From sequence record OK322699.1: 64,000 nt of DNA; one strand, 5' to 3'. This document shows positions 7,998 to 48,448 of the stretch, in pieces. Below the pieces are notes generated by a model. The model saw only the letters and a program-made list of their open reading frames with translations. It did no database searches and was not told the origin of the DNA. The position numbers were made by a program, and so were the translations under genes. Origin of the DNA: Escherichia phage Sa157lw. Position 1 is the stretch's first letter; the number at the start of each line of letters is the position of its first letter.

Positions 7998-8495
7998 ATG
8001 ACAGGTGTACAATTCAAAAACGAAAATCCTAATTTCGCGGCTTCCGATAAATGGCGCTTAACCATCGGAGACCTGGTGCTGCTAACCCGTTCGATACACG
8101 ACTTCAGTATCCCTGGCGTGTATTCCGAAGGTATCGAAGGCCCATCCCCTGGCGATGTCCTAAACTCTATACCTTCAGAACGTCTCACGTATGACCCCAT
8201 CGTATTTACGTTCGTTATCGATGAGAGTTGGTACAACTGGGAACAGATTTACAATTGGATCGCTTCGAACGCGGGTTCAGATTTAGCCGTCAGTAGAGAT
8301 ATTACGATTGAACTTTTAGACAACATGAACCGTCCTGTTGGGCTTCAGTTGCTTCTAGAAGAAGGGCGACCAACAGCGCTAGACAACGTGTTGGTTGACG
8401 TGGATGCATCGGTTCCTCAGTTGGTCACAACGGTGACATTCAAATATCTGAAACTGACTCCGACCCGCGTAACCCGCGAAATTGATAAACAATAA
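7998..8495 (+). CDS. hypothetical protein
   Basis: 165 aa ORF. Confidence 0.45.
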   Translation: MTGVQFKNENPNFAASDKWRLTIGDLVLLTRSIHDFSIPGVYSEGIEGPSPGDVLNSIPSERLTYDPIVFTFVIDESWYNWEQIYNWIASNAGSDLAVSRDITIELLDNMNRPVGLQLLLEEGRPTALDNVLVDVDASVPQLVTTVTFKYLKLTPTRVTREIDKQ

Positions 8496-8533
8496 GTTAT
8501 AATACAGAGAGTTGAAACAGCAGGAAATAAATC

Positions 8534-8989
8534 ATGAGTGAAACAAAATTTGAAACAATGAAGACCGAAGATATAATCGCGGAATTAGATCCTCTTATTT
8601 CGGTGAATCCTGAAGACATGAATTTAGACCAAATATCATTGAAAATTGGTCGTTCATGGATGGCTGTCCAGCGCCATTACATTCGTGAAGGGCGTTATCT
8701 AGAATTTTTGACAGGAAAATTCCGTCAAATCGATCTTTATTTACGTCGGTATTATGCAGGGGAATTACCACCCAATATTTATGTCGAACGTCCCCTGAAA
8801 GTTCGCCCCCTGAAATCTGATATAGACGTTTGGGTAAAGGCTGATGACGATTACATTGAGTTATCGAGCATGTTGCAAGAACAAAAAGCCAAAGTAAAAT
8901 TAATCGAAAGTAGTTTAGAACGTTTGAATAAACTCGGCTATGAAGTGAAAAATGCGATTGATTGGCGAAAATACTTGGACGGCATGTGA
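8534..8989 (+). CDS. hypothetical protein
   Basis: 151 aa ORF with AGGAAATAAATCATG start context. Confidence 0.45.
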   Translation: MSETKFETMKTEDIIAELDPLISVNPEDMNLDQISLKIGRSWMAVQRHYIREGRYLEFLTGKFRQIDLYLRRYYAGELPPNIYVERPLKVRPLKSDIDVWVKADDDYIELSSMLQEQKAKVKLIESSLERLNKLGYEVKNAIDWRKYLDGM

Positions 8990-9735
8990 TGGTTTCCCTG
9001 CAGGCTTTGCGTAAACTCAATGATTTTGAGAACCGCCATTACACATTTCAGCAGTATGCCTTGCCCTTTAAGGAACTGACTTGTGTAACAACGGAAAACG
9101 GACGCCATTATGTGTCTCCAACAGGCGTCAAACTCACATCTGTAACAACGATGTTGGGGCGTACCGGAGATCATACATGGTTAGAAGCCTGGCGGGACAA
9201 GTTAGGACACGAAGCCGCCGATATCGAAACAGAGCGTTGCGCAGACCGTGGGGAAAAACTTCATTTGGCCTGTGAATTATATCTCAAAAACAGGCCGATG
9301 AAGGAAGTGTTAGAAGCCGCAGGGGAATACGTGTTTATGTTTAAACAGGTCTTCCCCTACCTGAACAAAATGAGCAAGATATACGCGCAGGAGATTCCGT
9401 TATATAGCGAAGTCCTTGGTCTTGCTGGTCGTGTTGATCTCATCAGCGTTTACGAGGGAATCCCTAGCATTATCGATTTCAAAACATCCAACACCCTGAA
9501 AACTCGGAGCATGATAGAAGATTACAGCATTCAACTATGCCTGTACTCAGTCATGTTTCAACAGATGTTTAATGTTAAGATCGAACGTTTGGTCAATATT
9601 ATATCTAACGAAAATTCTCTTGTCCCGACTATAATCGAATTTAATCGAAAAGACGTTATTTCTAAAATGTTTGATCGTGTTCGCCTGTATCATAAAATGG
9701 ATAAAGAACAGAACGGGATCTGGGCGGATCGCTAA
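8989..9735 (+). CDS. PD-(D/E)xK family nuclease (RecB/Cas4-like)
   Basis: motifs GRVDLI .. IIDFKTS .. QLCLY; start coupled to upstream stop (TGATG). Confidence 0.5.
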   Translation: MVSLQALRKLNDFENRHYTFQQYALPFKELTCVTTENGRHYVSPTGVKLTSVTTMLGRTGDHTWLEAWRDKLGHEAADIETERCADRGEKLHLACELYLKNRPMKEVLEAAGEYVFMFKQVFPYLNKMSKIYAQEIPLYSEVLGLAGRVDLISVYEGIPSIIDFKTSNTLKTRSMIEDYSIQLCLYSVMFQQMFNVKIERLVNIISNENSLVPTIIEFNRKDVISKMFDRVRLYHKMDKEQNGIWADR

Positions 9736-9763
9736 ATACTCCATAATATTGGGGGAATTAGTG

Positions 9764-11269
9764 ATGTCAGAAATTCAAATAATCAAAGTTAACGAAGTGC
9801 GCATGCGAATCTTGGCGGAAGACTATATCCGCGAAGAACTCAATGATTACTTCAAATTTGAAGATCCTAATTTCCAACCGAATCCCTTCAGTAAATGGGA
9901 TGGCGTGGTACGCTTGTTCACAAAGAGTTCTGGCCTTATAGACATCGGTCTGTTGTTTGAGGTGTTTAAGTTCTGTAAGATGAATGGTTACACCATCAAA
10001 TTAGATCCCGCCTTAAAATATATCCAAGATATACCAGACGAAGAGATACATACATTTATCAATTCCCTGAACGCTGTTTACCGTGATGAAAACAAGCAAT
10101 ACCAAATCGCAACAGTGCGCGACTATCAATTCGACTCAGTGGCCACAGCAATACGCCAATCCAGATGCGTGCTAGAAGCGGCTACGAGCGCGGGTAAATC
10201 GTTTATTTTGTACATCATGGCGCGTTACTACAGGCAACGCAGAGAGGCACTGGAAAGCAATCTCAAGACGTTGATCGTTGTACCTTCCATTCACTTGGTG
10301 ACTCAGTTGTATGACAACTTTGAGGAATACAGCCATGGCACAAATTGGAATACCATGATGAATGTCCAGATGATATGTGAAGGTGCAACAAAGGATATAT
10401 TCAAGCCCATAGTCATTTCCACTTGGCAGGGTATTCAGAATCAGCCCAAAGAATGGTTCCATCAATTTGGGGATATTGTTGTCGACGAAGTACACACATC
10501 TAAATCTGAAAAGCTATCTTATATCCTGAACAACTGCATTAATGCTGACCAAAGATTGGGAGTAACCGGAACCCTCGCGAATACAAAGGTTGCAGGGTTG
10601 CAGGTCGTTGCCCATTTTGGAGCATACCATAAAATTATTACAGCACGTGATTTAATAAATCTTGGTTATGCCGCAGATATCCATGTCAACATGATTGAAG
10701 TCATACATCCCATGGCGGATTGTATAGAAATGCATGGTGCTGAGTACCAAAAGGAAATAGAATTCCTCATAGCGAATGAACGTCGAAACGAGTTAATAGC
10801 CAGAATGGCATTGTCTTTGAAAGGTAACGTGGCCGTTATGTTCGAACGCATTGACGCCCATATGATGATTGTTTATGAAATGCTTTCAGCCGTTAAGAAA
10901 AACGTATTTGTCATTAACGGCGAAGTTAAGACAGAAGTTCGTAAACAAATTCAGGCAGCGATGGAAGAGGGCGAAGATATAACACTGCTGGCATCTTATG
11001 GGACCATGCAACAGGGAGTGTCGATCAAAAAACTTCATCATTTGATATTGGCACACCCGAGTAAATCCTATATTCGTGTCATACAGACTTTAGGGCGTCT
11101 CATGCGCCAGCACTCTTCAAAGGATGTTGCCAAGATCTGGGATTTAGTAGACAACTTGCGTTACAAAGGATTTTCGTACAACCATGCCCTCAGACATTCG
11201 CATGAGAGATATAAATTTTATCTTATGGAGCGACACCCTGTACAAATGAAGAAAGTGTCGCTCCAGTAA
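9764..11269 (+). CDS. uvsW: UvsW RNA-DNA/DNA-DNA helicase
   Basis: 501 aa; Walker A ATSAGKS, DEVH box, C-terminal LHHLILAHPSKS..QTLGRLMR..WDLVDN match T4 UvsW. Confidence 0.9.
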   Translation: MSEIQIIKVNEVRMRILAEDYIREELNDYFKFEDPNFQPNPFSKWDGVVRLFTKSSGLIDIGLLFEVFKFCKMNGYTIKLDPALKYIQDIPDEEIHTFINSLNAVYRDENKQYQIATVRDYQFDSVATAIRQSRCVLEAATSAGKSFILYIMARYYRQRREALESNLKTLIVVPSIHLVTQLYDNFEEYSHGTNWNTMMNVQMICEGATKDIFKPIVISTWQGIQNQPKEWFHQFGDIVVDEVHTSKSEKLSYILNNCINADQRLGVTGTLANTKVAGLQVVAHFGAYHKIITARDLINLGYAADIHVNMIEVIHPMADCIEMHGAEYQKEIEFLIANERRNELIARMALSLKGNVAVMFERIDAHMMIVYEMLSAVKKNVFVINGEVKTEVRKQIQAAMEEGEDITLLASYGTMQQGVSIKKLHHLILAHPSKSYIRVIQTLGRLMRQHSSKDVAKIWDLVDNLRYKGFSYNHALRHSHERYKFYLMERHPVQMKKVSLQ

Positions 11270-23971: not shown

Positions 23972-24210
23972 TGTCTAATAAGAAAGTTGAAACGACGGTA
24001 GAAATTGATCGTAATTGGGGATTACTCCGCGCTAAAGGTTTTCGTCGTGTTTATATGACCAAGGAAGTTTATGTTCAGCGTCGCGACGTTATTATCAGCA
24101 AGAAAGGTAAAGAGTGGGTTGCTGAAGAAGTTGACATTGAAACAGGTGTCGTGGGCAAAGTAAAAGCGAAGGCGGCTATTTTGTTTTCTCTTCTGAAGCA
24201 TATCAATTAA
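23971..24210 (+). CDS. hypothetical small protein
   Basis: 79 aa, start overlaps upstream stop. Confidence 0.35.
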   Translation: MSNKKVETTVEIDRNWGLLRAKGFRRVYMTKEVYVQRRDVIISKKGKEWVAEEVDIETGVVGKVKAKAAILFSLLKHIN

Positions 24211-24223
24211 TTCTATAAACTCC

Positions 24224-24250
24224 GGCGGGGTATGATTACCCCGCCTATTT
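24224..24250 (+). terminator. stem-loop GGCGGGG tatgatta CCCCGCC + TATTT
   Basis: inverted repeat. Confidence 0.5.
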
Positions 24251-24294
24251 GAAATTGCAGGAACTTATATCATGATCTCTGTCGAGGGTATAAT

Positions 24295-24582
24295 ATGACA
24301 AAGGAACAAGAACTCGCTTTGTTCTCTATGGTTCGCAGTAATGTTAAATTGAGTTTTAGACAAGTGGACTCCATTATTGATCTTATGAAAATTAAGAATT
24401 CCATAGATAACGATCATTTGCGCACCGCTCTTTTGGGATTGTTGGAATTCGTTTTGCGCGGATCTGATCTTGGACCAGTGAATGATATTGACGACCTGAC
24501 CAAATTGTTAAACACTGGCGGTGATGGTTTCGATACCGCTCGTATTCTGATTAACTGTGGTCCTAACAAAGAAGAGGTATGA
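24295..24582 (+). CDS. hypothetical small protein
   Basis: 95 aa ORF. Confidence 0.35.
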   Translation: MTKEQELALFSMVRSNVKLSFRQVDSIIDLMKIKNSIDNDHLRTALLGLLEFVLRGSDLGPVNDIDDLTKLLNTGGDGFDTARILINCGPNKEEV

Positions 24583-29877: not shown

Positions 29878-30156
29878 ATGAACCGTACTGATTTTATCGC
29901 TCACATCGCCCAGACTCAGGGTATGACCAAAGGCGAAGCAGAGAAGATCGTGGCATCCTTTATCAATGGCGTAAAAACTGCAGTCGCAGCTGGCCAATCT
30001 GTCCAATTCGTCGGCTTCGGCGCGTTTGAAGTTAAACATCAGGAAGCGCGCACTGGTCGCAACCCGCTGAACGGGCAAGCGATTCAGATCGAAGCGAAAA
30101 ATGTTGTTAAATTCAAAGTCGGCGAAGGTCTGAAAGCTGCTGCCAACGGCCAGTAA
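29878..30156 (+). CDS. HU/IHF-family DNA-binding protein
   Basis: ORF 29842..30156 trimmed to MNRTDF (GGAG RBS); FxGFGxFEV..R.GRNP..G..I arm motifs of HU. Confidence 0.8.
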   Translation: MNRTDFIAHIAQTQGMTKGEAEKIVASFINGVKTAVAAGQSVQFVGFGAFEVKHQEARTGRNPLNGQAIQIEAKNVVKFKVGEGLKAAANGQ

Positions 30157-30204: not shown

Positions 30205-30234
30205 AAAGCCGAGGTTAATGCCTCGGCTTTTTCG
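30205..30234 (+). terminator. rho-independent terminator AAAGCCGAGG ttaatg CCTCGGCTTT + TT
   Basis: 10-bp stem and T-run. Confidence 0.75.
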
Positions 30235-30281
30235 TTGTTGGAATTCGGGTAAACTATAACAGAACCCAAAGGAGGAACAAC

Positions 30282-32003
30282 GTGACAGCATTTAATCAAT
30301 ACCGAAAGGCGATTGACGCCATAGGCCGTAAGGTTCCTATAGAAGAAATACAAAGCCTTGCCAAAAACGAATTTCCATATGACAAGGCGAACCAAGGCCA
30401 GATGGAATGTATCGTCGAAGCCGTTGATGCCTTGGTCAACAAAAAGGTCAAACACGTGATCATTGAAGCCCCAACTGGCGTGGGGAAATCTTTGATTGGG
30501 ACAACAATTCATAAAGTGATTCGCCATTTGGTTTTACAGGCCGATCCTTATGGGCAATTCCGCACGTCTATCAGTACGCCCACCAAAGGTCTACAAGATC
30601 AGTATGCTGCTGAAAAGGCGGTGGCGATAGACATCCTGAAAGGCAAGAAGAACTATCGTTGCCACGTACACCCAGATGTGTATTACAACGCCGTGCAATG
30701 CCGTATAGCATGCCGCGACGGGCATTGTAGCAAACGCCGTTGTCCTTATGTACAGGCGCGCAATTTATGGACTGATATTTCGTCATTGCGTTGCACTAAT
30801 GCAGCTATGATGATTGAGATGTGCACCACCATCTGTATGAAGCCTGAAAACCGTTCCGATATGCTGATCTTAGACGAGTGCCATAAGATGCCCTCTACGC
30901 TCCTAGAGCACACGATAATGGAATACAATACAAAGGCTGTGGATGGGCTGCGAACTATCCCCGAAGGGAAGGAGATAGTCTCTATCATTGCCGATATCGT
31001 AGAACGCACCAAGGACTATGTCTTGGGCAAGTTGTATTCCTTGTCCGGTGAAATGCATTCGATGTTTGAAGACCTCCATCTTAAAGTGGAGTCTTTGTTG
31101 GAAGTTCTTGAAGAATTGGTTGAAGATGACCGCCTGAGTGAAAGCCAGGTGATGAAACTCGCCGACATTATCGATGTACTACACAATCTGAGTGATTATT
31201 GTGGTATTATGTCTCAGACAAAGGCCAGCACCTTTATCGTACAGGAAAAGGGAGATGACTTTATTCGGTTTAAACCCGTCATGCCTTCTGATGTAAGTGA
31301 ATTTGGATTGTTCAGGAAAGCCGATTACCATGTTCATATGTCGGCAACAATCTGCGGAATCGATTCATATGCCCGTTCCTTGGGTATCCGCCAGGGGGAT
31401 TATCATTCAATACAGATTGGAAATCCAATCCCAATTGAAAATCGGAAAGTCAACTATATGCCCATCGTTAAGATGACCAACAACATGGGCGATTATGAAA
31501 TGAAAAGGCTGACGGAATACATTGATGAAATAATCGCATTCCATCCAGGGCAATCTGGCATCATACATACGGTGAGCTATGATCGCGCATTAGCAATACA
31601 AAAATTCAGCAAATACCAGAACTTTATCCATGTGCCACGCACTCGAAAGGCGTTGATGGATATTATGGAAAATGCCTTCAGGACAAAAACACCTTGTGTT
31701 ATTGCCAGTCCGGCCATGGAAGAAGGATATGACTTCAAAGGTGATTACAGCCGATTCCAAATACTGATCAAAGTTCCTTACGATTATTTGGGTGATCCAT
31801 TGATCGCACATATTAATTCAGTGGATCCGTCTGCGTACTTCCGCAACGCAGTATTGCGCATTGTTCAGATGTGCGGACGTTCGGTCAGGGGTGTGGATGA
31901 CTGGGCTGCAACATACATAATCGATTCTTCCTTTGAATCTCTTATGATGCGCAACCCAGAGTTCTTCCCAACCTGGTTCACCGATGCAGTATTTGAAGTT
32001 TAA
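30282..32003 (+). CDS. DinG/XPD-like SF2 helicase with Fe-S cysteine cluster
   Basis: 573 aa; Walker A EAPTGVGKS, DECH box LILDECHK, Cys cluster CHVH..C..C..C..C. Confidence 0.55.
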   Translation: MTAFNQYRKAIDAIGRKVPIEEIQSLAKNEFPYDKANQGQMECIVEAVDALVNKKVKHVIIEAPTGVGKSLIGTTIHKVIRHLVLQADPYGQFRTSISTPTKGLQDQYAAEKAVAIDILKGKKNYRCHVHPDVYYNAVQCRIACRDGHCSKRRCPYVQARNLWTDISSLRCTNAAMMIEMCTTICMKPENRSDMLILDECHKMPSTLLEHTIMEYNTKAVDGLRTIPEGKEIVSIIADIVERTKDYVLGKLYSLSGEMHSMFEDLHLKVESLLEVLEELVEDDRLSESQVMKLADIIDVLHNLSDYCGIMSQTKASTFIVQEKGDDFIRFKPVMPSDVSEFGLFRKADYHVHMSATICGIDSYARSLGIRQGDYHSIQIGNPIPIENRKVNYMPIVKMTNNMGDYEMKRLTEYIDEIIAFHPGQSGIIHTVSYDRALAIQKFSKYQNFIHVPRTRKALMDIMENAFRTKTPCVIASPAMEEGYDFKGDYSRFQILIKVPYDYLGDPLIAHINSVDPSAYFRNAVLRIVQMCGRSVRGVDDWAATYIIDSSFESLMMRNPEFFPTWFTDAVFEV

Positions 32004-32767
32004 TAACCTGCAATAAACGATAAATGGCACTTGATATTTGGTTCAAGTGTCGTTATCGTGATGATCATATTATCCACATCTTGACTAAAAGATATATTTG
32101 CTATTGGTTTAGTCTGAACGTGGTTGTACAGGCTGTATATCAAATCTTCACCACGGTATCCGACTTTACCATCAGTATCCTGCCAATGGCCTAACGTGGA
32201 TTCATGAGCATGTACTCGGAATTCTATCATATGGAACAATGCTTTTGGGATTGTTTTCAGTATGCTGGTTCCGACAACAGGGATATCAATAGCAGAGTCG
32301 TTGGAATTGCCCTCATATACTGAAGCCCAACCAAATGTTGGATCTCCTCCCGCCACGGGAGTTCTCTTCCAGTATTGGAATTCTGGATTACCCGAAGCGT
32401 TCTTTTGCAGAAGGATTACTTCACCGCCTTCAAAATTAGAAGTGTCTATATCATCACGTGCTAATAAATCAGCTGGAGAACCAATAAATTTCCAGGTTTC
32501 GCGATCTAAAATAGACTTATAATAATCGGTGAATACGTTGCTGTCGTTAGCTGCATTGATTGCGTCTTTAAGACCTTCACCTGTGACCATCTCATTGAGT
32601 TTTAGCCACATGTTTTTGACAGCTGACGCAGCTGCGACTTGACCTTCAGTCCCACCCGCCGTGTAGTCATAAACGATGTCCAGCTTTTGTATGGAATCAT
32701 TTATAGACAAGAGCAAACGCTCAATTTCTGGGGCGGTCAGACTGAAACGATATGCGCGTTCTGACAT
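32000..32767 (-). CDS. hypothetical protein (isolated minus-strand gene)
   Basis: 255 aa ORF convergent with helicase. Confidence 0.45.
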   Translation of the reverse strand: MSERAYRFSLTAPEIERLLLSINDSIQKLDIVYDYTAGGTEGQVAAASAVKNMWLKLNEMVTGEGLKDAINAANDSNVFTDYYKSILDRETWKFIGSPADLLARDDIDTSNFEGGEVILLQKNASGNPEFQYWKRTPVAGGDPTFGWASVYEGNSNDSAIDIPVVGTSILKTIPKALFHMIEFRVHAHESTLGHWQDTDGKVGYRGEDLIYSLYNHVQTKPIANISFSQDVDNMIITITTLEPNIKCHLSFIAGY

Positions 32768-32809: not shown

Positions 32810-33337
32810 ATGATTGAAATATACACTGACGGGGCATCTTCCCCGCAGAAGACACAAGCCGCAGGTTGGGCATTTGCTATCGGTCCAATCACTGGAGAGC
32901 AATGGAAAGTGTTTTATGGGTATTTACCCCCACCGTCAACGAATAATATCGCTGAGTTGCTTGGGGTTATAAACGCCTTGAAGATTCTATGGAAATTCTC
33001 TAATTGTGGGGAACGCTGTATTCCCTCAGCCAGTATTATATCCGACAGCCAATATGTTATCAATAGTGTTTTGGAGTGGCGTAGAAAATGGGAATATGAA
33101 GGAATGCCGCCTAAGAACACAGAACTTCTGCTCGAGTTGTTCGATTATTATGACAAAGTTTGTTCAATTTGTGAACTTGAATTAAAATGGGTGAAAGGTC
33201 ATGCGGGGAATATCGGCAACGAAATCGCAGATCAGTGGAGCGTCAGAGCCAAAGAAAATAGCTCGATGGTTCTTGAAAATAATCGTTTCCTGGTCAGAAA
33301 GGTTGTTGGTTCTTTCAATGAATTCATTGGTATTTGA
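32810..33337 (+). CDS. ribonuclease HI-like protein
   Basis: ORF 32795..33337 trimmed; YTDGAS .. NNIAEL .. SDSQYV .. WVKGHAGNxGNExAD motifs. Confidence 0.7.
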   Translation: MIEIYTDGASSPQKTQAAGWAFAIGPITGEQWKVFYGYLPPPSTNNIAELLGVINALKILWKFSNCGERCIPSASIISDSQYVINSVLEWRRKWEYEGMPPKNTELLLELFDYYDKVCSICELELKWVKGHAGNIGNEIADQWSVRAKENSSMVLENNRFLVRKVVGSFNEFIGI

Positions 33338-33348
33338 GGATTATCACG

Positions 33349-34119
33349 ATGGGTATGAATTTTGTAGACAGGGGTGATAACGTCACCAAATATTTCACTG
33401 ACGAAGATAACGATCGAGTTGTGGGGATATTGCGTGATTGGATCCCTGCTCGTAAAAAGGCATTAGCCGAAGGAACACCCCTACCAAGAATCCCCAATTA
33501 TGTGGCCATGAATGTTCAGATGATAATCAAGAATATGAGTATGCGTTACAACTACCGTGATTATCCATATCGTGAAGACATGGTGAGTGAAGCGGTTGTG
33601 AACATCCTTCGTTACCTTCACACCTTTGATGTTAGCCATATCGGCAAGAAAGGAAAGATCAACTTCTTCTCTTGGGTGACTATGTGTGCCGATCGCTCAT
33701 TCGCCAAGAAACTCACGAGTGAAGAAGAACACAACTACATTAAATTGCGTTCCTTTGAAGAAGCAGGTGGGTTCGCAGCTTTATCGGATGACCCAGACTT
33801 CCAACAACAAACCTTCGTTGATAGCACTGGGATAACGATGGACTTTCGTGAACGCATCGGTAATTTCGAAAATAAGAAAGAAGCCCAGCGTGAAAAGGAA
33901 CGCCAAAAGCAAACGGCTATCAAAGAAGAGGAAAAGAATAAGAAAATCCCTCGCGGTATACTTCGATGTCTTACGAAGAGTGTAAATACCATTACCGCTG
34001 ACGCCGAAGACAATTCAGATAATGACTTCGGCTCTACTCAATTTAGTCTTGAAGATATAATGGACAGCCCCACATTGTTAGCCGAATCAGTTGGAGAAAA
34101 GAATAATGGCGATTGCTAA
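33349..34119 (+). CDS. 55: late promoter sigma factor gp55-like
   Basis: ORF 33334..34119 (TTG) trimmed to ATG; central region aligns to T4 gp55; located before gp47/gp46; Lys/Glu-rich C-terminal extension. Confidence 0.55.
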   Translation: MGMNFVDRGDNVTKYFTDEDNDRVVGILRDWIPARKKALAEGTPLPRIPNYVAMNVQMIIKNMSMRYNYRDYPYREDMVSEAVVNILRYLHTFDVSHIGKKGKINFFSWVTMCADRSFAKKLTSEEEHNYIKLRSFEEAGGFAALSDDPDFQQQTFVDSTGITMDFRERIGNFENKKEAQREKERQKQTAIKEEEKNKKIPRGILRCLTKSVNTITADAEDNSDNDFGSTQFSLEDIMDSPTLLAESVGEKNNGDC

Positions 34120-35221
34120 AATTGGCGATTTACACATCGGGAGCCGCAATGGTTCCCGTTACGTTCGTGAATTCATAAAGAATTATCTCATCAACTATTT
34201 TATTCCCGAATTGGTAGATGCAGACATTAAAGAAGTTTGGCAATTCGGCGACACATTTGATGTTCGTAAATTTATGTACGGGCGCGACAAAGATTGGTTG
34301 AAAGATGAACTGACTCCAGCCCTGAGAAAGGCGGGTATCAAATGGAATGGCATCGTTGGAAACCATGATATCACCTTAGAAGAATCTAACCGTATCAACT
34401 GGCCATCCTATCTGAATGAATTAGCGCCAGACGTCTATCATTATTACAGTGAACCCACTGAAGTTTCGATTGAAGGCGAAAAGGTATTGCTTCTCCCATG
34501 GATCAATAAAGAGAATTATGATGCATCTGTTAAAGCGATACAAGATACAGACGCCAAGTACTGTTTTGCGCATCTGGAGTTGGCAGGGTTCAAAATGTAC
34601 CAGTCCTCTGTATGTGATAAAGGTCAGATCGACGTGGCGCTCCTTTCCAAGTTCGAACGCGTGGATACCGGACATTTCCATACCCGTTCGATGGAAGGTA
34701 ACATTCAGTATATTGGGACTCCTTATCACCTTACCTGGGAAGACCATAAAGACGGAACGAACCGAGGATTCTATGTAGACGACATGAAAGGCGGGGAATT
34801 GTTTATTCCCAACAACGAGCAACAAACGTTGTTCCGATTCATCGAATACGACTACACCCAAATGTCTTCCGACACCGAAGGAAACTGGATTGACCCAGAT
34901 TGGCTAAACAATGGTTTGGGTATTGAAGGGCAAATCGTTAAAGTGATTGTACAGAACCGCGATAATGCCAAGCATTATGAAAAGTTCTGCGACGCGCTGA
35001 AGCGCTGTAAATGCATCGATTACAACTTTATAGATCGGACTATCACAGTCTCGTCTGAGAAGGTAGAAGTCACTGAAGAGATGGTGGCGACTGATGCTGT
35101 GGAAGTCCTAAAGAAAGATATCCGCGCCGCCAATAATATCCAGCGCCCTGAAAATGTTTGCAAATTAGCAGAACAATTCTATAATGCTGCCCAACAACGC
35201 CTGAACACATTGGATGCATAA
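34106..35221 (+). CDS. 47: recombination endonuclease subunit gp47 (Mre11/SbcD-like)
   Basis: ORF 34091..35221 trimmed; GDLHIG, QFGDTFDVRK, VGNHD, GHFH phosphoesterase motifs. Confidence 0.85.
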   Translation: MAIAKIGDLHIGSRNGSRYVREFIKNYLINYFIPELVDADIKEVWQFGDTFDVRKFMYGRDKDWLKDELTPALRKAGIKWNGIVGNHDITLEESNRINWPSYLNELAPDVYHYYSEPTEVSIEGEKVLLLPWINKENYDASVKAIQDTDAKYCFAHLELAGFKMYQSSVCDKGQIDVALLSKFERVDTGHFHTRSMEGNIQYIGTPYHLTWEDHKDGTNRGFYVDDMKGGELFIPNNEQQTLFRFIEYDYTQMSSDTEGNWIDPDWLNNGLGIEGQIVKVIVQNRDNAKHYEKFCDALKRCKCIDYNFIDRTITVSSEKVEVTEEMVATDAVEVLKKDIRAANNIQRPENVCKLAEQFYNAAQQRLNTLDA

Positions 35222-35223
35222 TA

Positions 35224-37557
35224 ATGAGCAACGTAGATCTATTATCAAAATTTGGTTCGCTGTTGAAAGAAGCGGACGCTCCTGTTATTGTTGAAGCACC
35301 ATTTGAAATCCGTGGGGAAATTACTCACAAACTGACTTTCCATCGTGGTCGCGCTAAGAACTTTCGTTCTATCGGTAATGAATTCATGGAAATTGATTAC
35401 CAACGCAATTCGGCAACCTTGGTTACATCCGATGACAATGGCGCTGGTAAATCCACCATGCTTGTCTGGCTGCTGTTCTTCGTTCTGTACAACGACACGT
35501 ACAGCAAGAAAGAGAAGAAAGCCGGATTGGTTAACTCTCAAAACAAAAAGGAATGCGTGGGTGAAGTTGAGTTCTCAACTCGCGGTAGTGAATGGAAAGT
35601 CCGTCGGGGTATCAAACCAGATTTTGTAGAAGTTTATCAGATGGTGGAAGGAGAGTGGAAGCAAGTCGTGAACGATGCGGCCAAAGCTGATATGAACAAG
35701 TACATCGTGAATCTCATCGGCGTGGACCAGAAGATGTTCGAGAACTCTTTGGTTCTGGGCAAGGAGAAGTTTATTCCTTTCACAGAGATGTATACCGCTG
35801 ACCGCCGCGCCATGGTTGAAACAATTTGGGACTTGGGTTTCTTCAGCCTGATGAATGAGGATGTTAAAGCATCTATCAAGGCGGTAACGAACGAACTCAC
35901 GACGGTCACCAATGATTACGCCTTTCATGATGTGAATCTAAAAGGCCAGCAAGCGCAGTTGGAACAGATCAATAATTCCAATGCGATGGTTCAGCAACAA
36001 TCTGCGGATATCCTTGTCCAAGAGAAGGAACGTCTGAATAGCCTGAATTCAGATATCGGCGCAGTGCAGGAACAACTGACCGAGTCCCGTGCTCAAGACT
36101 CTAAATTGGAATCAGAATTATCAGAAGTCCGTAATCGCCTGAACGCTGAAATGAAGGTGGATATCGATGCCATCAATGACGAGTATTTTGCCAAAATTCA
36201 AGCGGTACAGGATGAGGCTGATACCAAGGCTGAAGACTATGAACGTATCGAGGTGTCTGATGGCGAACGTTCATTACAAGAAATTCGTGAGAGAATGGCG
36301 GTAGTCGCGGAACGTAAAAATGATCTGGTCAGCCAACGGAATGCTAACCTGGATGAACTGAACAAAGCATTAGCGCGGCGTCAGCAGGGTGAGAACTTCC
36401 GTATCAAATTCGTAACAGAAATGGAAGGACATGAATCTGCCATCAAACGTTTTCACGATATGGGCACTTGCCCTACGTGTACGCAATTAGTGTCGGACGA
36501 TACCAAATCACGCATTGAAAGTCAATATTATCCACAAATCATTGAACTGACTGACAAGATTCTTCAGGTTGACACAGCCCTAGAAGAAGTTAATTCCCTG
36601 ATTGAGAATTACAACGTCAAAGATTCAGAATTATCTTCTCAGATTTCGGTTGTTGACAAAGAACTGGATGCTTTGCGCAATGAAATCCGAGAAGCGGAAT
36701 CAGCGATCGCTGCATTAAAACGCGACATCCAAGGATTCTATGATGTGGCAGCTGTTGAGAAAACATCTTTACAGCGGGAACAACAGTCCAAAATTAACGA
36801 TATCCTCAAGGCCGTAGACACCCGTTACGAAGATATCACGACGTCAATCCGTCAAGCGCGCGAGCAGCTCTCTAAGAGTATCAACGACACGGCTGATAAA
36901 CTCACCAGCCTGAAATCACGCCGTGCCCCTCTGGAGGCATCCATTGCCGATTTAGAGCGTAAATTGGCGGTTAAGCCGACACCAACTGACACCCTGGAAG
37001 AAGAGATCGCTCGCATCACGGCGTTAATGGAAGATCTGAATGCGCGGCGCGTAGAGTTGGATGAGAAATTGCAAGACCTGAACCATCTTCTGTTCTTCCT
37101 AAAAGATGATCAGACCAAGGCTCGAATTATCAGCCTGTATTTGCCTTTCCTCAATAGTAAAATAAACGAGTATCTTGAAGCACTCAATATGTTCTTGGAT
37201 ATTGCTGTTGATGATACATTTGAAATCACCATGAGCGCTGCAGGTCGTAAAGGGCAAAGTATCTTCTCGTTATCTACTGGTCAGCGTAGTCGCCTGAACC
37301 TGGCTGTGACATTAGCTTTACGCGATGTTGCAAACCTCAAGGCGTCGGTGCAATGTAACCTGTTTGTGTTAGATGAAATCCTTGAGAACATGAGCGAGCG
37401 CGGCGTACAAGAATCGGTTGAGATGCTGAAGCATAAATTTGGCGGGAACAATCTGTTCGTTATCAGTCAACGCGAGCAGGAATTCCAAGAGTATTTCCAA
37501 CACAACATCCGTTATGGTCTGCGTAATGGCATGACTGAAGTGATTAAGAAGGATTGA
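35224..37557 (+). CDS. 46: recombination endonuclease subunit gp46 (Rad50/SbcC-like)
   Basis: 777 aa; Walker A NGAGKST, long coiled coil, CPTC zinc hook, signature LSTGQRSR, Walker B LFVLDE. Confidence 0.85.
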   Translation: MSNVDLLSKFGSLLKEADAPVIVEAPFEIRGEITHKLTFHRGRAKNFRSIGNEFMEIDYQRNSATLVTSDDNGAGKSTMLVWLLFFVLYNDTYSKKEKKAGLVNSQNKKECVGEVEFSTRGSEWKVRRGIKPDFVEVYQMVEGEWKQVVNDAAKADMNKYIVNLIGVDQKMFENSLVLGKEKFIPFTEMYTADRRAMVETIWDLGFFSLMNEDVKASIKAVTNELTTVTNDYAFHDVNLKGQQAQLEQINNSNAMVQQQSADILVQEKERLNSLNSDIGAVQEQLTESRAQDSKLESELSEVRNRLNAEMKVDIDAINDEYFAKIQAVQDEADTKAEDYERIEVSDGERSLQEIRERMAVVAERKNDLVSQRNANLDELNKALARRQQGENFRIKFVTEMEGHESAIKRFHDMGTCPTCTQLVSDDTKSRIESQYYPQIIELTDKILQVDTALEEVNSLIENYNVKDSELSSQISVVDKELDALRNEIREAESAIAALKRDIQGFYDVAAVEKTSLQREQQSKINDILKAVDTRYEDITTSIRQAREQLSKSINDTADKLTSLKSRRAPLEASIADLERKLAVKPTPTDTLEEEIARITALMEDLNARRVELDEKLQDLNHLLFFLKDDQTKARIISLYLPFLNSKINEYLEALNMFLDIAVDDTFEITMSAAGRKGQSIFSLSTGQRSRLNLAVTLALRDVANLKASVQCNLFVLDEILENMSERGVQESVEMLKHKFGGNNLFVISQREQEFQEYFQHNIRYGLRNGMTEVIKKD

Positions 37558-43824: not shown

Positions 43825-44442
43825 ATGGGCAAAATCTTTATACCTTCTCACTCAGAAGGTTGTCAAATCGCTGCAAAATTTCTACACAAACAAATGAATT
43901 GTGGTGCTGTGTTCGTAGAACCAAATTCATTCGATAATCGTGAATCCCCTGACGCCATCGGGTTCAGACCTGGGGGTTGTTCTATATTAATGGAAGTTAA
44001 AGTCTCCCGCGCCGACTTCCTGACAGACAAAAAGAAACCTCATCGCATGAATCCTTCCATAGGCATGGGAGCATATCGTTTCTATGTTTGCCCAGCAGAT
44101 GTTATTAAAATTGAAGACCTCCCTCCCAAATGGGGTTTGTTGTACTTCACCCCTAGAAAATCTTTGAAGCCCGTTCACGTTCCGAATATGCAATATTCCT
44201 CTTTGTCTTCACCGGAACATTATGCATCATATTTGTCTAAATCTTTGGGCAAAAGAAGTCCTACAGATATCCCTCCTTATCTATTAGGGTACAAACAGAT
44301 GCTGGAAGAATTTGCCCACTTTGATCGCAATCAGGTTGCGGAACAAAATATTCTGTATGGGGCTTGGCGACAGCTTTGCATAGCTCAAAGTCGCGGGGTG
44401 GATTATAATGTGACAGAAGTGTTCCAGAGGCCAAATATCTAA
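43825..44442 (+). CDS. putative PD-(D/E)xK-like nuclease
   Basis: PDAIGF .. ILMEVKVSRADF pattern (D..ExK); coupled to primase start. Confidence 0.3.
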   Translation: MGKIFIPSHSEGCQIAAKFLHKQMNCGAVFVEPNSFDNRESPDAIGFRPGGCSILMEVKVSRADFLTDKKKPHRMNPSIGMGAYRFYVCPADVIKIEDLPPKWGLLYFTPRKSLKPVHVPNMQYSSLSSPEHYASYLSKSLGKRSPTDIPPYLLGYKQMLEEFAHFDRNQVAEQNILYGAWRQLCIAQSRGVDYNVTEVFQRPNI

Positions 44443-45506
44443 TGAAATTCTTGGACGAACAATACATCAATTTTCTCGCCCCCCGACTTGATAAATTCAG
44501 TTGGGAACGTGTTGGCGCTGTCGCCAAATTTCGTTGCCCATTATGTGGGGATTCTAAGAAGAGTGCCAACAAGCGTCGTGGTCACTTCTTTTATGATCGT
44601 GATGACGATGTGTTTCGTTTCAAGTGCCACAACTGTAATGAAATGAGCGGTTGGGCGTTTGAATTCTGGTTGAAGAAGTTTGACGAGCGTCTGTATAATG
44701 AATACAACCTTGAAAAATTCAGAATCATGGGGGATACCAGTTCCCGCCCGTTACAAAAACTCAAACCACTACAGCGCCTGACCCAGACAGCACGTATCGG
44801 TTCTCAGGTCGCCAAACGGGATGAAGAGCACCTTGGGAATATGATACGCCTTGATCTTCTTGACCGTGATCATATCGCCCGTCGTTATGTTGAAGGCAGG
44901 GGAATGCCGGAGAGTGCGTTATCTCTTTTGTATTACAGCAAAAACTTCCGCGAAGATCTTTTGAATTTTGAAACAGACGTTGAAAAACAGAAGAAGATCC
45001 CTGAAGATGAACGGTTGGTTATCCCATTCTGGACTCAAGACGGTCGCATGAAGATCGTTCAGGGGCGCGCATTCGGTGATAACCTTCCTGATAATGTGTT
45101 GCGGTACGCCACTGTCAAGCCCAAAAACGAGGATACTAAAATCTATGGGGAAGAGCGCATCATATGGAATAAGACCAAATTGGTCGTTGAAGGTCCAATT
45201 GATAGCCTGTTCCTCCCGAATTGTTTAGCAACTGCGGATGCTGACCTTCTGAGCGCCAAGGGGGATATCTATATCCCTGACAACCAATATCGAAACAAAC
45301 AAGTTTGTGACGGTATACAGAAGATGATAGACAGCGGAGTCAAAGTCGTTCTGTTTCCACCGGAAATACCGTGGAAGGATATCAATGATATGGTTCGCCC
45401 CGACAAGGGAAATATCCCGATACGTGATCTGCTTCAGATCATAGCCAAGAACGTATATCAGGGGATGTCGGCGTCCTTACGATTTTCTGACTTGAGGAAG
45501 ATATGA
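44442..45506 (+). CDS. 61: DNA primase gp61
   Basis: zinc ribbon FRCPLCGDSK..KCHNCN and EGPIDSLF motif align to T4 gp61. Confidence 0.85.
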   Translation: MKFLDEQYINFLAPRLDKFSWERVGAVAKFRCPLCGDSKKSANKRRGHFFYDRDDDVFRFKCHNCNEMSGWAFEFWLKKFDERLYNEYNLEKFRIMGDTSSRPLQKLKPLQRLTQTARIGSQVAKRDEEHLGNMIRLDLLDRDHIARRYVEGRGMPESALSLLYYSKNFREDLLNFETDVEKQKKIPEDERLVIPFWTQDGRMKIVQGRAFGDNLPDNVLRYATVKPKNEDTKIYGEERIIWNKTKLVVEGPIDSLFLPNCLATADADLLSAKGDIYIPDNQYRNKQVCDGIQKMIDSGVKVVLFPPEIPWKDINDMVRPDKGNIPIRDLLQIIAKNVYQGMSASLRFSDLRKI

Positions 45507-47505: not shown

Positions 47506-47529
47506 AAAGGCCGGAAACGGCCTTTTTCT
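47506..47529 (+). terminator. stem-loop AAGGCCG gaaa CGGCCTT + TTTCTTT
   Basis: inverted repeat. Confidence 0.65.
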
Positions 47530-47608
47530 TTATCTAACATACAGGTATGCTGGGCGCGTCGCTTAATTAAAGGTGTCGACAACCCCTGTAGATATAGGAA
47601 GGTTCAAC

Positions 47609-48448
47609 ATGCAATCTGCGTCTAAAGTTGTATCCATGAAGCCAGCGAAGACAAAATCTGCTCGTAAGAAAGACACCATCCAGAAGGAAGAAGACTGGAT
47701 GAAGTTTTCCAAAGGCGATTTCAAAATTGCTCCGTTCAATGGCCTCTCAGAAAATCAGAACCTCGCATATCAATCCGCACTCAATGAACATCTCACTATC
47801 GCTATCGGTCCGGCAGGTACAGGCAAATCCTATTGTGGTGCGTCCGCTGCTGCCAAGCATCTGATTGACAAAACCATCAACAAGATTATCATCACGCGTT
47901 CTCCTTTACCGACTGGAACCACAGCGGGGTTCCGGCCTGGTGACACATATGAAAAGCTGATGCCTTATTTGATGCCGCTCATACAGACATTCAAAAAGGT
48001 TCTCAAAACAGATACGGGTTCCGACGGTTTCTTCAACTATCTGTGGGAGAAACGCATCATAGAAATTCAAGACCTTGAAACTGTAAAGGGAATGACCTTC
48101 GATGATTGTTTCCTGATTATCGAAGAGGCGCAGGAATGCGATATGGAGCAACTGAAAAACTTATTGACTCGTGCTTCAGATTCTTCGTACATCTTCGTGA
48201 ATGGAGATATCAAACAGTCTAACAAGCGACTGCGTGATAGTGCGTTACAGACGTATGTAGATTCCTTTAAAGACTTCAACAACAAGCTGGAAACAGGTTC
48301 TTTGCAAATTGACGGTGTAGAAATCGGAGATGAATATCCTGAGTGGGTTCAGCCATTCAGCATCATCGAATTCGATAAGTCTGATCGTAATGGTCGCGGT
48401 AACTTCACCCGCCTGATGTTAGAAATTAACGACCTGTACAACATTTAA
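47609..48448 (+). CDS. phoH: PhoH-like ATPase
   Basis: ORF 47573..48448 (GTG) trimmed to ATG; Walker A GPAGTGKSY and PhoH-like architecture. Confidence 0.7.
   Translation: MQSASKVVSMKPAKTKSARKKDTIQKEEDWMKFSKGDFKIAPFNGLSENQNLAYQSALNEHLTIAIGPAGTGKSYCGASAAAKHLIDKTINKIIITRSPLPTGTTAGFRPGDTYEKLMPYLMPLIQTFKKVLKTDTGSDGFFNYLWEKRIIEIQDLETVKGMTFDDCFLIIEEAQECDMEQLKNLLTRASDSSYIFVNGDIKQSNKRLRDSALQTYVDSFKDFNNKLETGSLQIDGVEIGDEYPEWVQPFSIIEFDKSDRNGRGNFTRLMLEINDLYNI

Follow-up and report, generated by a model that had tools for sequence, protein, structure and literature searches.

A compact helicase of the XPD/DinG branch with a putative iron-sulfur module in a Vi01-like phage

The window analyzed here is a stretch of 64,000 nucleotides (nt) from Escherichia phage Sa157lw (sequence record OK322699.1; one strand, 5' to 3'), a Vi01-like myovirus of the genus Kuttervirus, family Ackermannviridae. 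In the list of open reading frames of this window, a coding sequence (CDS) of 1,722 nt with a GTG start codon runs from 30282 to 32003 on the plus strand and encodes a protein of 573 amino acids (aa). This protein is a helicase of the XPD/DinG (Rad3) branch of superfamily 2 (SF2). It is considered likely that a catalytically intact enzyme, carrying a four-cysteine (Cys4) module with a putative [4Fe-4S] cluster, serves as an accessory helicase of the T4-type machinery of the phage, most probably filling the niche of Dda.

The gene is already annotated as a DNA helicase or an ATP-dependent helicase in public records, and the finding is correct but fairly ordinary. The record of Salmonella phage Matapan notes a DinG/Rad3-type C-terminal domain and PANTHER PTHR11472, and one Klebsiella phage record uses the name 'DinG'. 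The main gain is that a generic 'DNA helicase' annotation becomes a specific, testable family assignment. In addition, two features are mildly interesting, namely the minimal iron-sulfur (Fe-S) module and the likely substitution for Dda. No paper discussing or testing an Fe-S cluster in this phage helicase family was found in a literature search.

Family assignment, motor and cysteine module

An earlier note on this DNA, made from the letters, had proposed a DinG/XPD-type helicase, and this proposal is borne out by three lines of evidence: Pfam Helicase_C_2 (PF13307) matches with 46.2 bits against a gathering cutoff of 25.3, a profile of the family matches DinG, Rad3 and XPD among PDB sequences, and four cysteines are invariant. 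Helicase_C_2 is also matched by all 31 aligned relatives, with a best expectation value (E) of 1e-20, and the Pfam model ResIII scores above its cutoff for the phage helicase. Searched as a single protein against PDB sequences, the helicase finds E. coli DinG (E 1e-4). With the family profile, DinG (E 1.3e-18) is followed by Rad3, XPD, Chl1-type XPD, FANCJ and archaeal XPDs. The profile searches did not place the protein in a non-Fe-S helicase family, the outcome that the earlier note had named as decisive against it.

At the level of curated families, PHROG 2488 ('DNA helicase') matches with E 5e-265. The top NCBIfam matches are DinG, YoaA, dinG_rel and rad3, and all of them are far below their cutoffs: DinG (NF008729) reaches 60.5 of 598 bits, YoaA (NF053712) 53.9 of 680 bits and rad3 (TIGR00604), with its C-terminal part only, 26.8 of 246.95 bits. 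The Csf4 model TIGR03117 reaches 12.2 of 400 bits. Because the curated models score so far below cutoff, the phage helicase is no ortholog of DinG, YoaA, XPD or Csf4. The XPD arch-related HBB model gives weak matches in 9 of the 31 relatives and a faint one for the phage helicase.

The alignment of 31 relatives extends to 32% identity, with a mean column identity of 43%. The full SF2 motor set (motifs Q, I, Ia, II, III, V and VI) is invariant in this alignment, as well as in 20 phage and cellular sequences (Table 1), and, judged by these motifs, the helicase is catalytically intact. The Walker A motif (aa 63-70), the DECH box (aa 198-201) and the cluster of four to five cysteines between them (aa 127-154), which had first been noticed in the letters, are all confirmed. 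In many relatives, C200 of the DECH box is replaced by alanine or serine. Therefore, DECH is a mere variant of DEAH, and C200 is no candidate metal ligand.

An AlphaFold2 model built on the alignment (predicted local distance difference test (pLDDT) 89.4, predicted template modeling score (pTM) 0.88, pLDDT of the cysteine region 81-88) predicts two RecA-like domains and two insertions, a small one with the Cys4 site behind motif Ia and a helical, Arch-like one behind motif II. The four-domain fold of this helicase branch, with an Arch insertion after motif II, is found in the model, where the helical insertion presumably corresponds to the Arch domain of XPD. When the model was compared with the PDB using Foldseek, the top 44 matches were all DinG, XPD, CasDinG or Hna, the best being DinG 6fws (E 3.8e-26, template modeling score 0.64).

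E. coli DinG (6fwr/6fws) is both the best sequence match and the best Foldseek match, and it has the same domain order. DinG and its paralog YoaA are the bacterial XPD-family [4Fe-4S] 5'-3' helicases. The identity between DinG and the phage helicase is 15-17%, DinG is longer (716 aa versus 573 aa), and the phage motif II reads DECH. The XPD/Rad3 enzymes (TaXPD 4a15/2vsf, SaXPD 3crv, yeast Rad3 and human XPD) differ from the phage helicase in the spacing of their cysteines. Also, there are no TFIIH-type partners with the phage, and the Arch region is not recognizably homologous in sequence.

Between Walker A and the DECH box, eight cysteines are present (127, 140, 144, 149, 154, 171, 181 and 185), and the first five of these are packed into 28 residues (nt 30660-30743). 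Such a clustering goes far beyond what chance would give. Four of the five (C127, C140, C149 and C154) never vary in the 31-sequence alignment, and chromosomal relatives from archaea and bacteria, with identities of about 24%, have retained these four as well; with the exception of one gap, they are present in all 20 aligned phage and cellular sequences. When 252 family members were aligned to the profile, 250 had C127 and 249 had C154, and 244 had at least four cysteines in the short cysteine segment, the commonest span from the first to the fourth being 28 residues. The module follows the pattern G-x-x-N-Y-x-C127 ... C140 ... C149 ... C154-P-Y, surrounded by the conserved aromatic and basic residues Y125, Y135, Y156, R160 and W163.

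In the PDB sequence search alignments, the GkknYeC segment of the helicase aligns with GRGRYVC120 of DinG, and with the profile the C..C-P-Y segment of the family aligns with C199..C205-P-F of DinG and C191-P-Y of Rad3. The first, third and fourth cysteines (C127, C149 and C154) thereby pair with C120, C199 and C205 of DinG, C154 pairs with C191 of Rad3, and C140 is four residues off the column of DinG C194. C120, C194, C199 and C205 are the cluster ligands of DinG. The last three cysteines are closely spaced in both proteins, whereas the gap between the first and the second is about 73 residues in DinG and 12 in the phage helicase. By alignment, each of the four invariant cysteines coincides with a [4Fe-4S]-ligating position of DinG and Rad3 or is only a few residues away from one, and the Cys4 module of the phage helicase probably holds an iron-sulfur cluster.

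The remaining cysteines (C144, C171, C181, C185 and that of the DECH box) were considered as extra ligands or as a second site and rejected, being unconserved across the family. C171, C181 and C185 (codons at 30792, 30822 and 30834; LRC171TN and EMC181TTIC185) lie between the Cys4 site and motif II. They are kept among the enterobacterial and Vibrio Ackermannviridae proteins and lost in remoter relatives.

Accessory role in the T4-type machinery

The helicase gene is part of a T4-type replication and recombination block with genes for an HU-like protein, the helicase, RNase HI, a gp55-like sigma factor, gp47 and gp46. In addition to UvsY, UvsW and DenV (Table 1), genes for a PD-(D/E)XK exonuclease, the clamp, the clamp loader and RegA are located upstream in the window, and the rest of the Vi01 genome encodes gp41, the gp59 loader, UvsX, ligase and DNA polymerase. 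The order helicase, RNase HI, gp55, gp47 and gp46 is kept in Vibrio phage K476, the helicase of which is 46% identical. A fixed partner gene for the helicase was considered as well and rejected, as the order is lost in Rhizobium phage P10VF, haloarchaeal HRTV-8, sewage T4-like phages and a 262-kb phage.

A homolog of T4 Dda was searched for with tblastn in the window and the rest of Vi01, leaving a gap of about 1.3 kb, half of it occupied by another gene, and nothing below E 0.39 was found. The sole match, which is insignificant (E 0.39, N-terminal 38 residues), is a gene for a PhoH-like P-loop ATPase (47514-48353, plus strand). The statement that T4 uses Dda, UvsW and gp41 instead of such a helicase thus stands only for Dda, which is absent here, but not as a contrast for UvsW and gp41, which are also encoded, the latter together with its gp59 loader. 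Among the Salmonella phage records in the collection searched, only 49 have a Dda homolog, against 165 with the helicase described here.

Dda is a functional analogue only. It belongs to superfamily 1B rather than SF2, has no sequence similarity to the phage helicase and has no metal cofactor; the proposed shared niche is that of a non-replicative 5'-3' helicase in a T4-type system, and the functional equivalence is inferred by analogy. To our knowledge, every characterized XPD/DinG helicase translocates 5'-to-3'. With this family polarity and the absence of Dda, the most economical explanation is that the phage helicase supplies the Dda-type accessory activity, and an accessory 5'-3' helicase in the Dda niche is the most likely role by comparison with T4. 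The 'additional fork-processing capacity' suggested in the earlier note is plausible.

In the proposed mechanism, the helicase, presumed to be a monomer, would have its Cys4 module loaded with a [4Fe-4S] cluster by the host Isc/Suf machinery, as expected from the family. The Fe-S module, organized by the cluster, would act as the strand-separating wedge. Single-stranded DNA would thread between domain 1, the Arch-like insertion and the Fe-S module, and ATP hydrolysis at the interface of domains 1 and 2 would power 5'-to-3' translocation, both as in other members of the family. From the gene context, the enzyme of Vi01-like phages may work beside gp41/gp59, the replicative helicase and its loader, and UvsW, a 3'-5' branch helicase. 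There it would most probably take over the tasks of Dda, the 5'-3' accessory helicase, by removing proteins, R-loops or D-loops in front of forks and aiding recombination-dependent replication.

If this is true, an XPD-like enzyme would have taken the place of a non-homologous accessory helicase, Dda, within the T4 superfamily. Also, widespread phages that are therapeutic candidates (Vi01, CBA120 and relatives) would need the iron-sulfur assembly system of their hosts for an enzyme of replication or repair.

Several points weigh against this reading of a cluster-bearing Dda substitute. Of the two profile families that had been proposed as a check, Helicase_C_2 matches, but Pfam DEAD_2 (PF06733), the signature of domain 1 and the Fe-S region in this family, has no match to the phage helicase and matches 6 of the 31 relatives (E<0.1) weakly, with a best E of 2e-5; the shortened Fe-S insert probably weakens this match. 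A Cys4 motif as short as 28 residues might also accommodate zinc. The low scores of the curated models (12-60 bits versus cutoffs of 247-680) make any transfer of function from a characterized enzyme indirect, and, since the neighbors of distant homologs differ, the gene context says little about the specific substrate. The idea of Dda replacement is drawn from absence in one lineage, not from a systematic phyletic pattern. Finally, a literature search found no metal, ATPase, helicase or polarity data for any family member.

A more specific job has also been considered, namely that the helicase removes RNA-DNA hybrids (R-loops as well as primer remnants) jointly with the RNase HI encoded nearby. 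DinG and CasDinG unwind RNA/DNA hybrids, and the resolution of R-loops where replication and transcription collide is regarded as a task of E. coli DinG. The gene for the E. coli-type RNase HI is one gene away from the helicase, the gene order is kept in the Vibrio phage described above, and a putative RNase H gene is found less than 2 kb from the homolog in Rhizobium phage P10VF. However, a gene on the opposite strand separates the helicase from RNase HI, the adjacency is lost in remoter T4-superfamily phages, jumbo phages and haloarchaeal viruses, and UvsW, the R-loop helicase of T4, is also encoded. This dedicated role is therefore regarded as unlikely.

Metal site, relatives and the question of defense

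A second alternative keeps the same helicase fold and the metal-stapled wedge and assumes that the redox cofactor was lost, so that the compact Cys4 module binds structural zinc instead of [4Fe-4S]. The size of the module and the DEAD_2 result are in line with this, as the four cysteines span about 28 residues in most phage members, far fewer than C120 to C205 in DinG, and DEAD_2 fails to match the phage helicase. The cluster has disappeared altogether from other branches of the family; for example, CasDinG (Csf4) of type IV-A clustered regularly interspaced short palindromic repeats (CRISPR)-Cas systems (8e2w, 7xex and 8s35) is described in PMC10450177 as carrying a 'vestigial FeS' domain. 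However, cluster-losing lineages such as CasDinG lost the cysteines too, whereas four cysteines are invariant in the relatives of the phage helicase and nearly universal in its family. The cysteines, in addition, occupy positions homologous to those of the Fe-S ligands in DinG and Rad3, the fourth one sharing its C-P-Y/F signature as well, and the same four positions continue through archaeal relatives with full-size inserts. Binding of zinc is thus considered quite unlikely. If the [4Fe-4S] cluster is real, the module would be a minimal natural Fe-S wedge domain and a small model for cluster function in XPD-family helicases. This function is tied to disease mutations in human XPD, FANCJ and RTEL1.

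The family is large. In a profile search covering 1.84 billion cluster representatives, 4,388 clusters were found at E<=1e-30 and 15,345 at E<=1e-3. According to phage records, carriers in the Ackermannviridae are phages of Salmonella, Escherichia, Klebsiella, Dickeya, Erwinia and Serratia, and related Vibrio phages carry a homolog with about 46% identity. Further carriers are the Rhizobium phages P10VF and TM30 of the T4 superfamily, the jumbo phages RsoM2USA and PAU, and Lak megaphages. Haloarchaeal tailed viruses carry a homolog annotated as 'Rad3-related DNA helicase'. Metagenomic relatives with 32-37% identity are found in T4-like genomes beside gp23, portal and neck genes, or in the 262-kb phage.

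Cellular relatives have been found as well. A motif-based scan of species-representative genomes gave 70 loci, of which about 55 are on chromosomes of Nitrososphaerota; as such a scan favors shared motifs, other cellular relatives may exist. The carriers include Nitrosopumilus, Nitrosotalea, Cenarchaeum and Nitrosopelagicus, at times with two copies per genome. Against the profile of the phage family, these archaeal proteins score 206-252 bits; with an equal database size, DinG reaches 70. The homolog of Nitrosotalea devanaterra (L029:7941-9647) has housekeeping genes as neighbors (RIO kinase, an HhH-GPD glycosylase, GINS51 and glutamine synthetase).

The Rad3-like helicases of Nitrososphaerota are the closest cellular relatives found, sharing all motifs, the four cysteines and a similar length with the phage helicase. 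They differ in their identity of 24-30%, in motif II, which is DEAH, and in the Fe-S insert, where the span from the first to the fourth cysteine is about 70-90 residues versus about 28 in the phage. The chromosomal genes of these ammonia-oxidizing archaea seem to form an uncharacterized Rad3-like clade. The phage helicases belong to a separate large clade that is common to many tailed phages and ammonia-oxidizing archaea, and in their sequences they look like a compacted form of a clade with cellular members. A broader proposal, offered tentatively and as possible rather than probable, is that the phage family and the archaeal helicases make up a third clade of Fe-S helicases beside XPD and DinG/YoaA. 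In tailed phages, the wedge would have shrunk to about 28 residues (CX12CX8CX4C-P-Y), the enzyme would replace Dda in Dda-less phages of the T4 superfamily, and replication and recombination would depend on host Fe-S assembly.

A part in conflict systems, either as an anti-defense factor, as the earlier note had offered, or as a phage relative of type IV CasDinG or Hna-type defense helicases, is very unlikely, even though the PADLOC model PDLC01439 ('typeIV_DinG; CAS-IV-A associated') matches nearly the full length of the phage helicase (E 3.4e-50), structures of CasDinG and Hna are among its fold matches, and in the 262-kb phage contig a homolog lies less than 7 kb from the anti-defense genes for S-adenosylmethionine (SAM) lyase, Tad3 and Acb3. 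This single match in a defense library gives the anti-defense role no support, and a CRISPR or defense link through PDLC01439 was rejected: the model scores the Nitrosotalea homolog in its housekeeping context higher (230 bits) than the phage helicase (169 bits) and is therefore a generic profile of the clade, not a CRISPR marker. It also matches homologs from haloviruses, rhizobiophages and Thermoplasmatales, and the scores of phage, haloviral and housekeeping thaumarchaeal helicases range from 137 to 230 bits. The true Csf4 models give a partial match with E 3.5e-6 (PADLOC Csf4_0_IVA) or worse, with TIGR03117 at the 12 bits given above. No cas genes, csf genes included, and no CRISPR array are annotated near the helicase gene, and, unlike typical accessory anti-defense genes, the gene is conserved throughout the Ackermannviridae within the replication and recombination block. 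The label of PDLC01439 could produce false 'defense' calls on phage and archaeal genomes.

The region of the 262-kb phage contig mentioned here (L080:1-15614, GCA_902725575.1), in which the 37%-identical homolog is located amid the SAM lyase, Tad3 and Acb3 genes, also contains two IS605 OrfB/TnpB-like genes, a Y1 transposase and Thg1. The gene directly upstream of the homolog encodes a DUF2828/DUF7788 protein and overlaps it by 8 nt.

Gene start, flanks and feature coordinates

The CDS coincides exactly with the annotated 'DNA helicase' CDS of Vi01 (Vi01_106c) and of Matapan (CPT_Matapan_118). Over the 1,722-nt region, the nucleotide identity is 99.8% to Salmonella phages FSL SP-063, Matapan and Guerrero and to E. 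coli phage ECML-4, and 99.4% to Vi01 itself. Megablast matches the gene to 211 phage records, and tblastn to 496. Translation has to begin at the GTG because the invariant residues F31, G39 and Q40 of the Q-motif precede the first in-frame ATG (M41). A start at M41, as in the 533-aa annotation of Klebsiella phage T751, was rejected, as these residues would be lost.

The hairpin between the HU-like gene and the helicase gene (Table 1) looks like an intrinsic terminator that sets the two genes apart. A terminator scan gives the same stem on the minus strand, and the Matapan record annotates a terminator on both strands. A promoter scan found no sigma-70 promoter between this hairpin and the start codon, directly 5' of the helicase gene.

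Table 1. Features of the helicase gene and its surroundings, with positions in the window
Feature	Positions	Strand	Remarks
CDS, 573-aa XPD/DinG-superfamily SF2 helicase	30282-32003	+	
Q-motif region FPYDKANQGQ	30372-30401	+	F31, G39, Q40 invariant
Motif I / Walker A APTGVGKS, aa 63-70	30468-30491	+	T65, G66, G68, K69, S70 invariant
Motif Ia TPTKGLQDQY	30576-30605	+	T101, L104, Q105, Q107, Y108 invariant
Compact Cys4-bearing insert in helicase domain 1, aa 121-166	30642-30779	+	predicted [4Fe-4S] wedge module
Motif II / Walker B DECH, aa 198-201	30873-30884	+	D198, E199, H201 invariant
Mostly helical insertion after motif II, aa ~205-333	30894-31280	+	approximate boundaries; most variable part of the family
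Motif III region HMSATI	31335-31352	+	M353, S354, T356 invariant
Helicase domain 2, aa ~400-573	31479-32000	+	matches Pfam Helicase_C_2
Motif V SPAMEEGYDFK	31707-31739	+	S476...D484 invariant
Motif VI QMCGRSVRG	31866-31892	+	Q529, R533, R536 invariant
Shine-Dalgarno AGGAGG	30270-30275	+	6 nt 5' of GTG; annotated ribosome-binding site in Matapan, same coordinates
GC-rich hairpin (AAAGCCGAGG-TTAATG-CCTCGGCTTT) then T-rich run	30205-30230	+	sequence reading
UvsY	8295-8750		upstream of helicase gene
UvsW	9525-11030		upstream of helicase gene
DenV	23991-24446		upstream of helicase gene
HU/IHF-type DNA-binding protein gene	29878-30156	+	immediately upstream of helicase gene
RNase HI (E. coli-type, not T4 FEN-type rnh)	32810-33337	+	downstream of helicase gene
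gp55-like late sigma factor	33349-34119	+	downstream
gp47 and gp46 (Mre11-Rad50-like nuclease)	34106-37557	+	downstream
Primase	44345-45409		downstream

Directly downstream, a convergent gene of 255 aa (32000-32767, minus strand) overlaps the helicase stop codon with its end by 4 nt and sits inside the otherwise co-directional replication and recombination block. In the records, it is labeled as hypothetical, 'putative structural protein' or 'baseplate wedge protein'. In Vibrio phage K476, a minus-strand gene of comparable size (L003:8522-9262) is likewise present between the helicase and RNase H genes.

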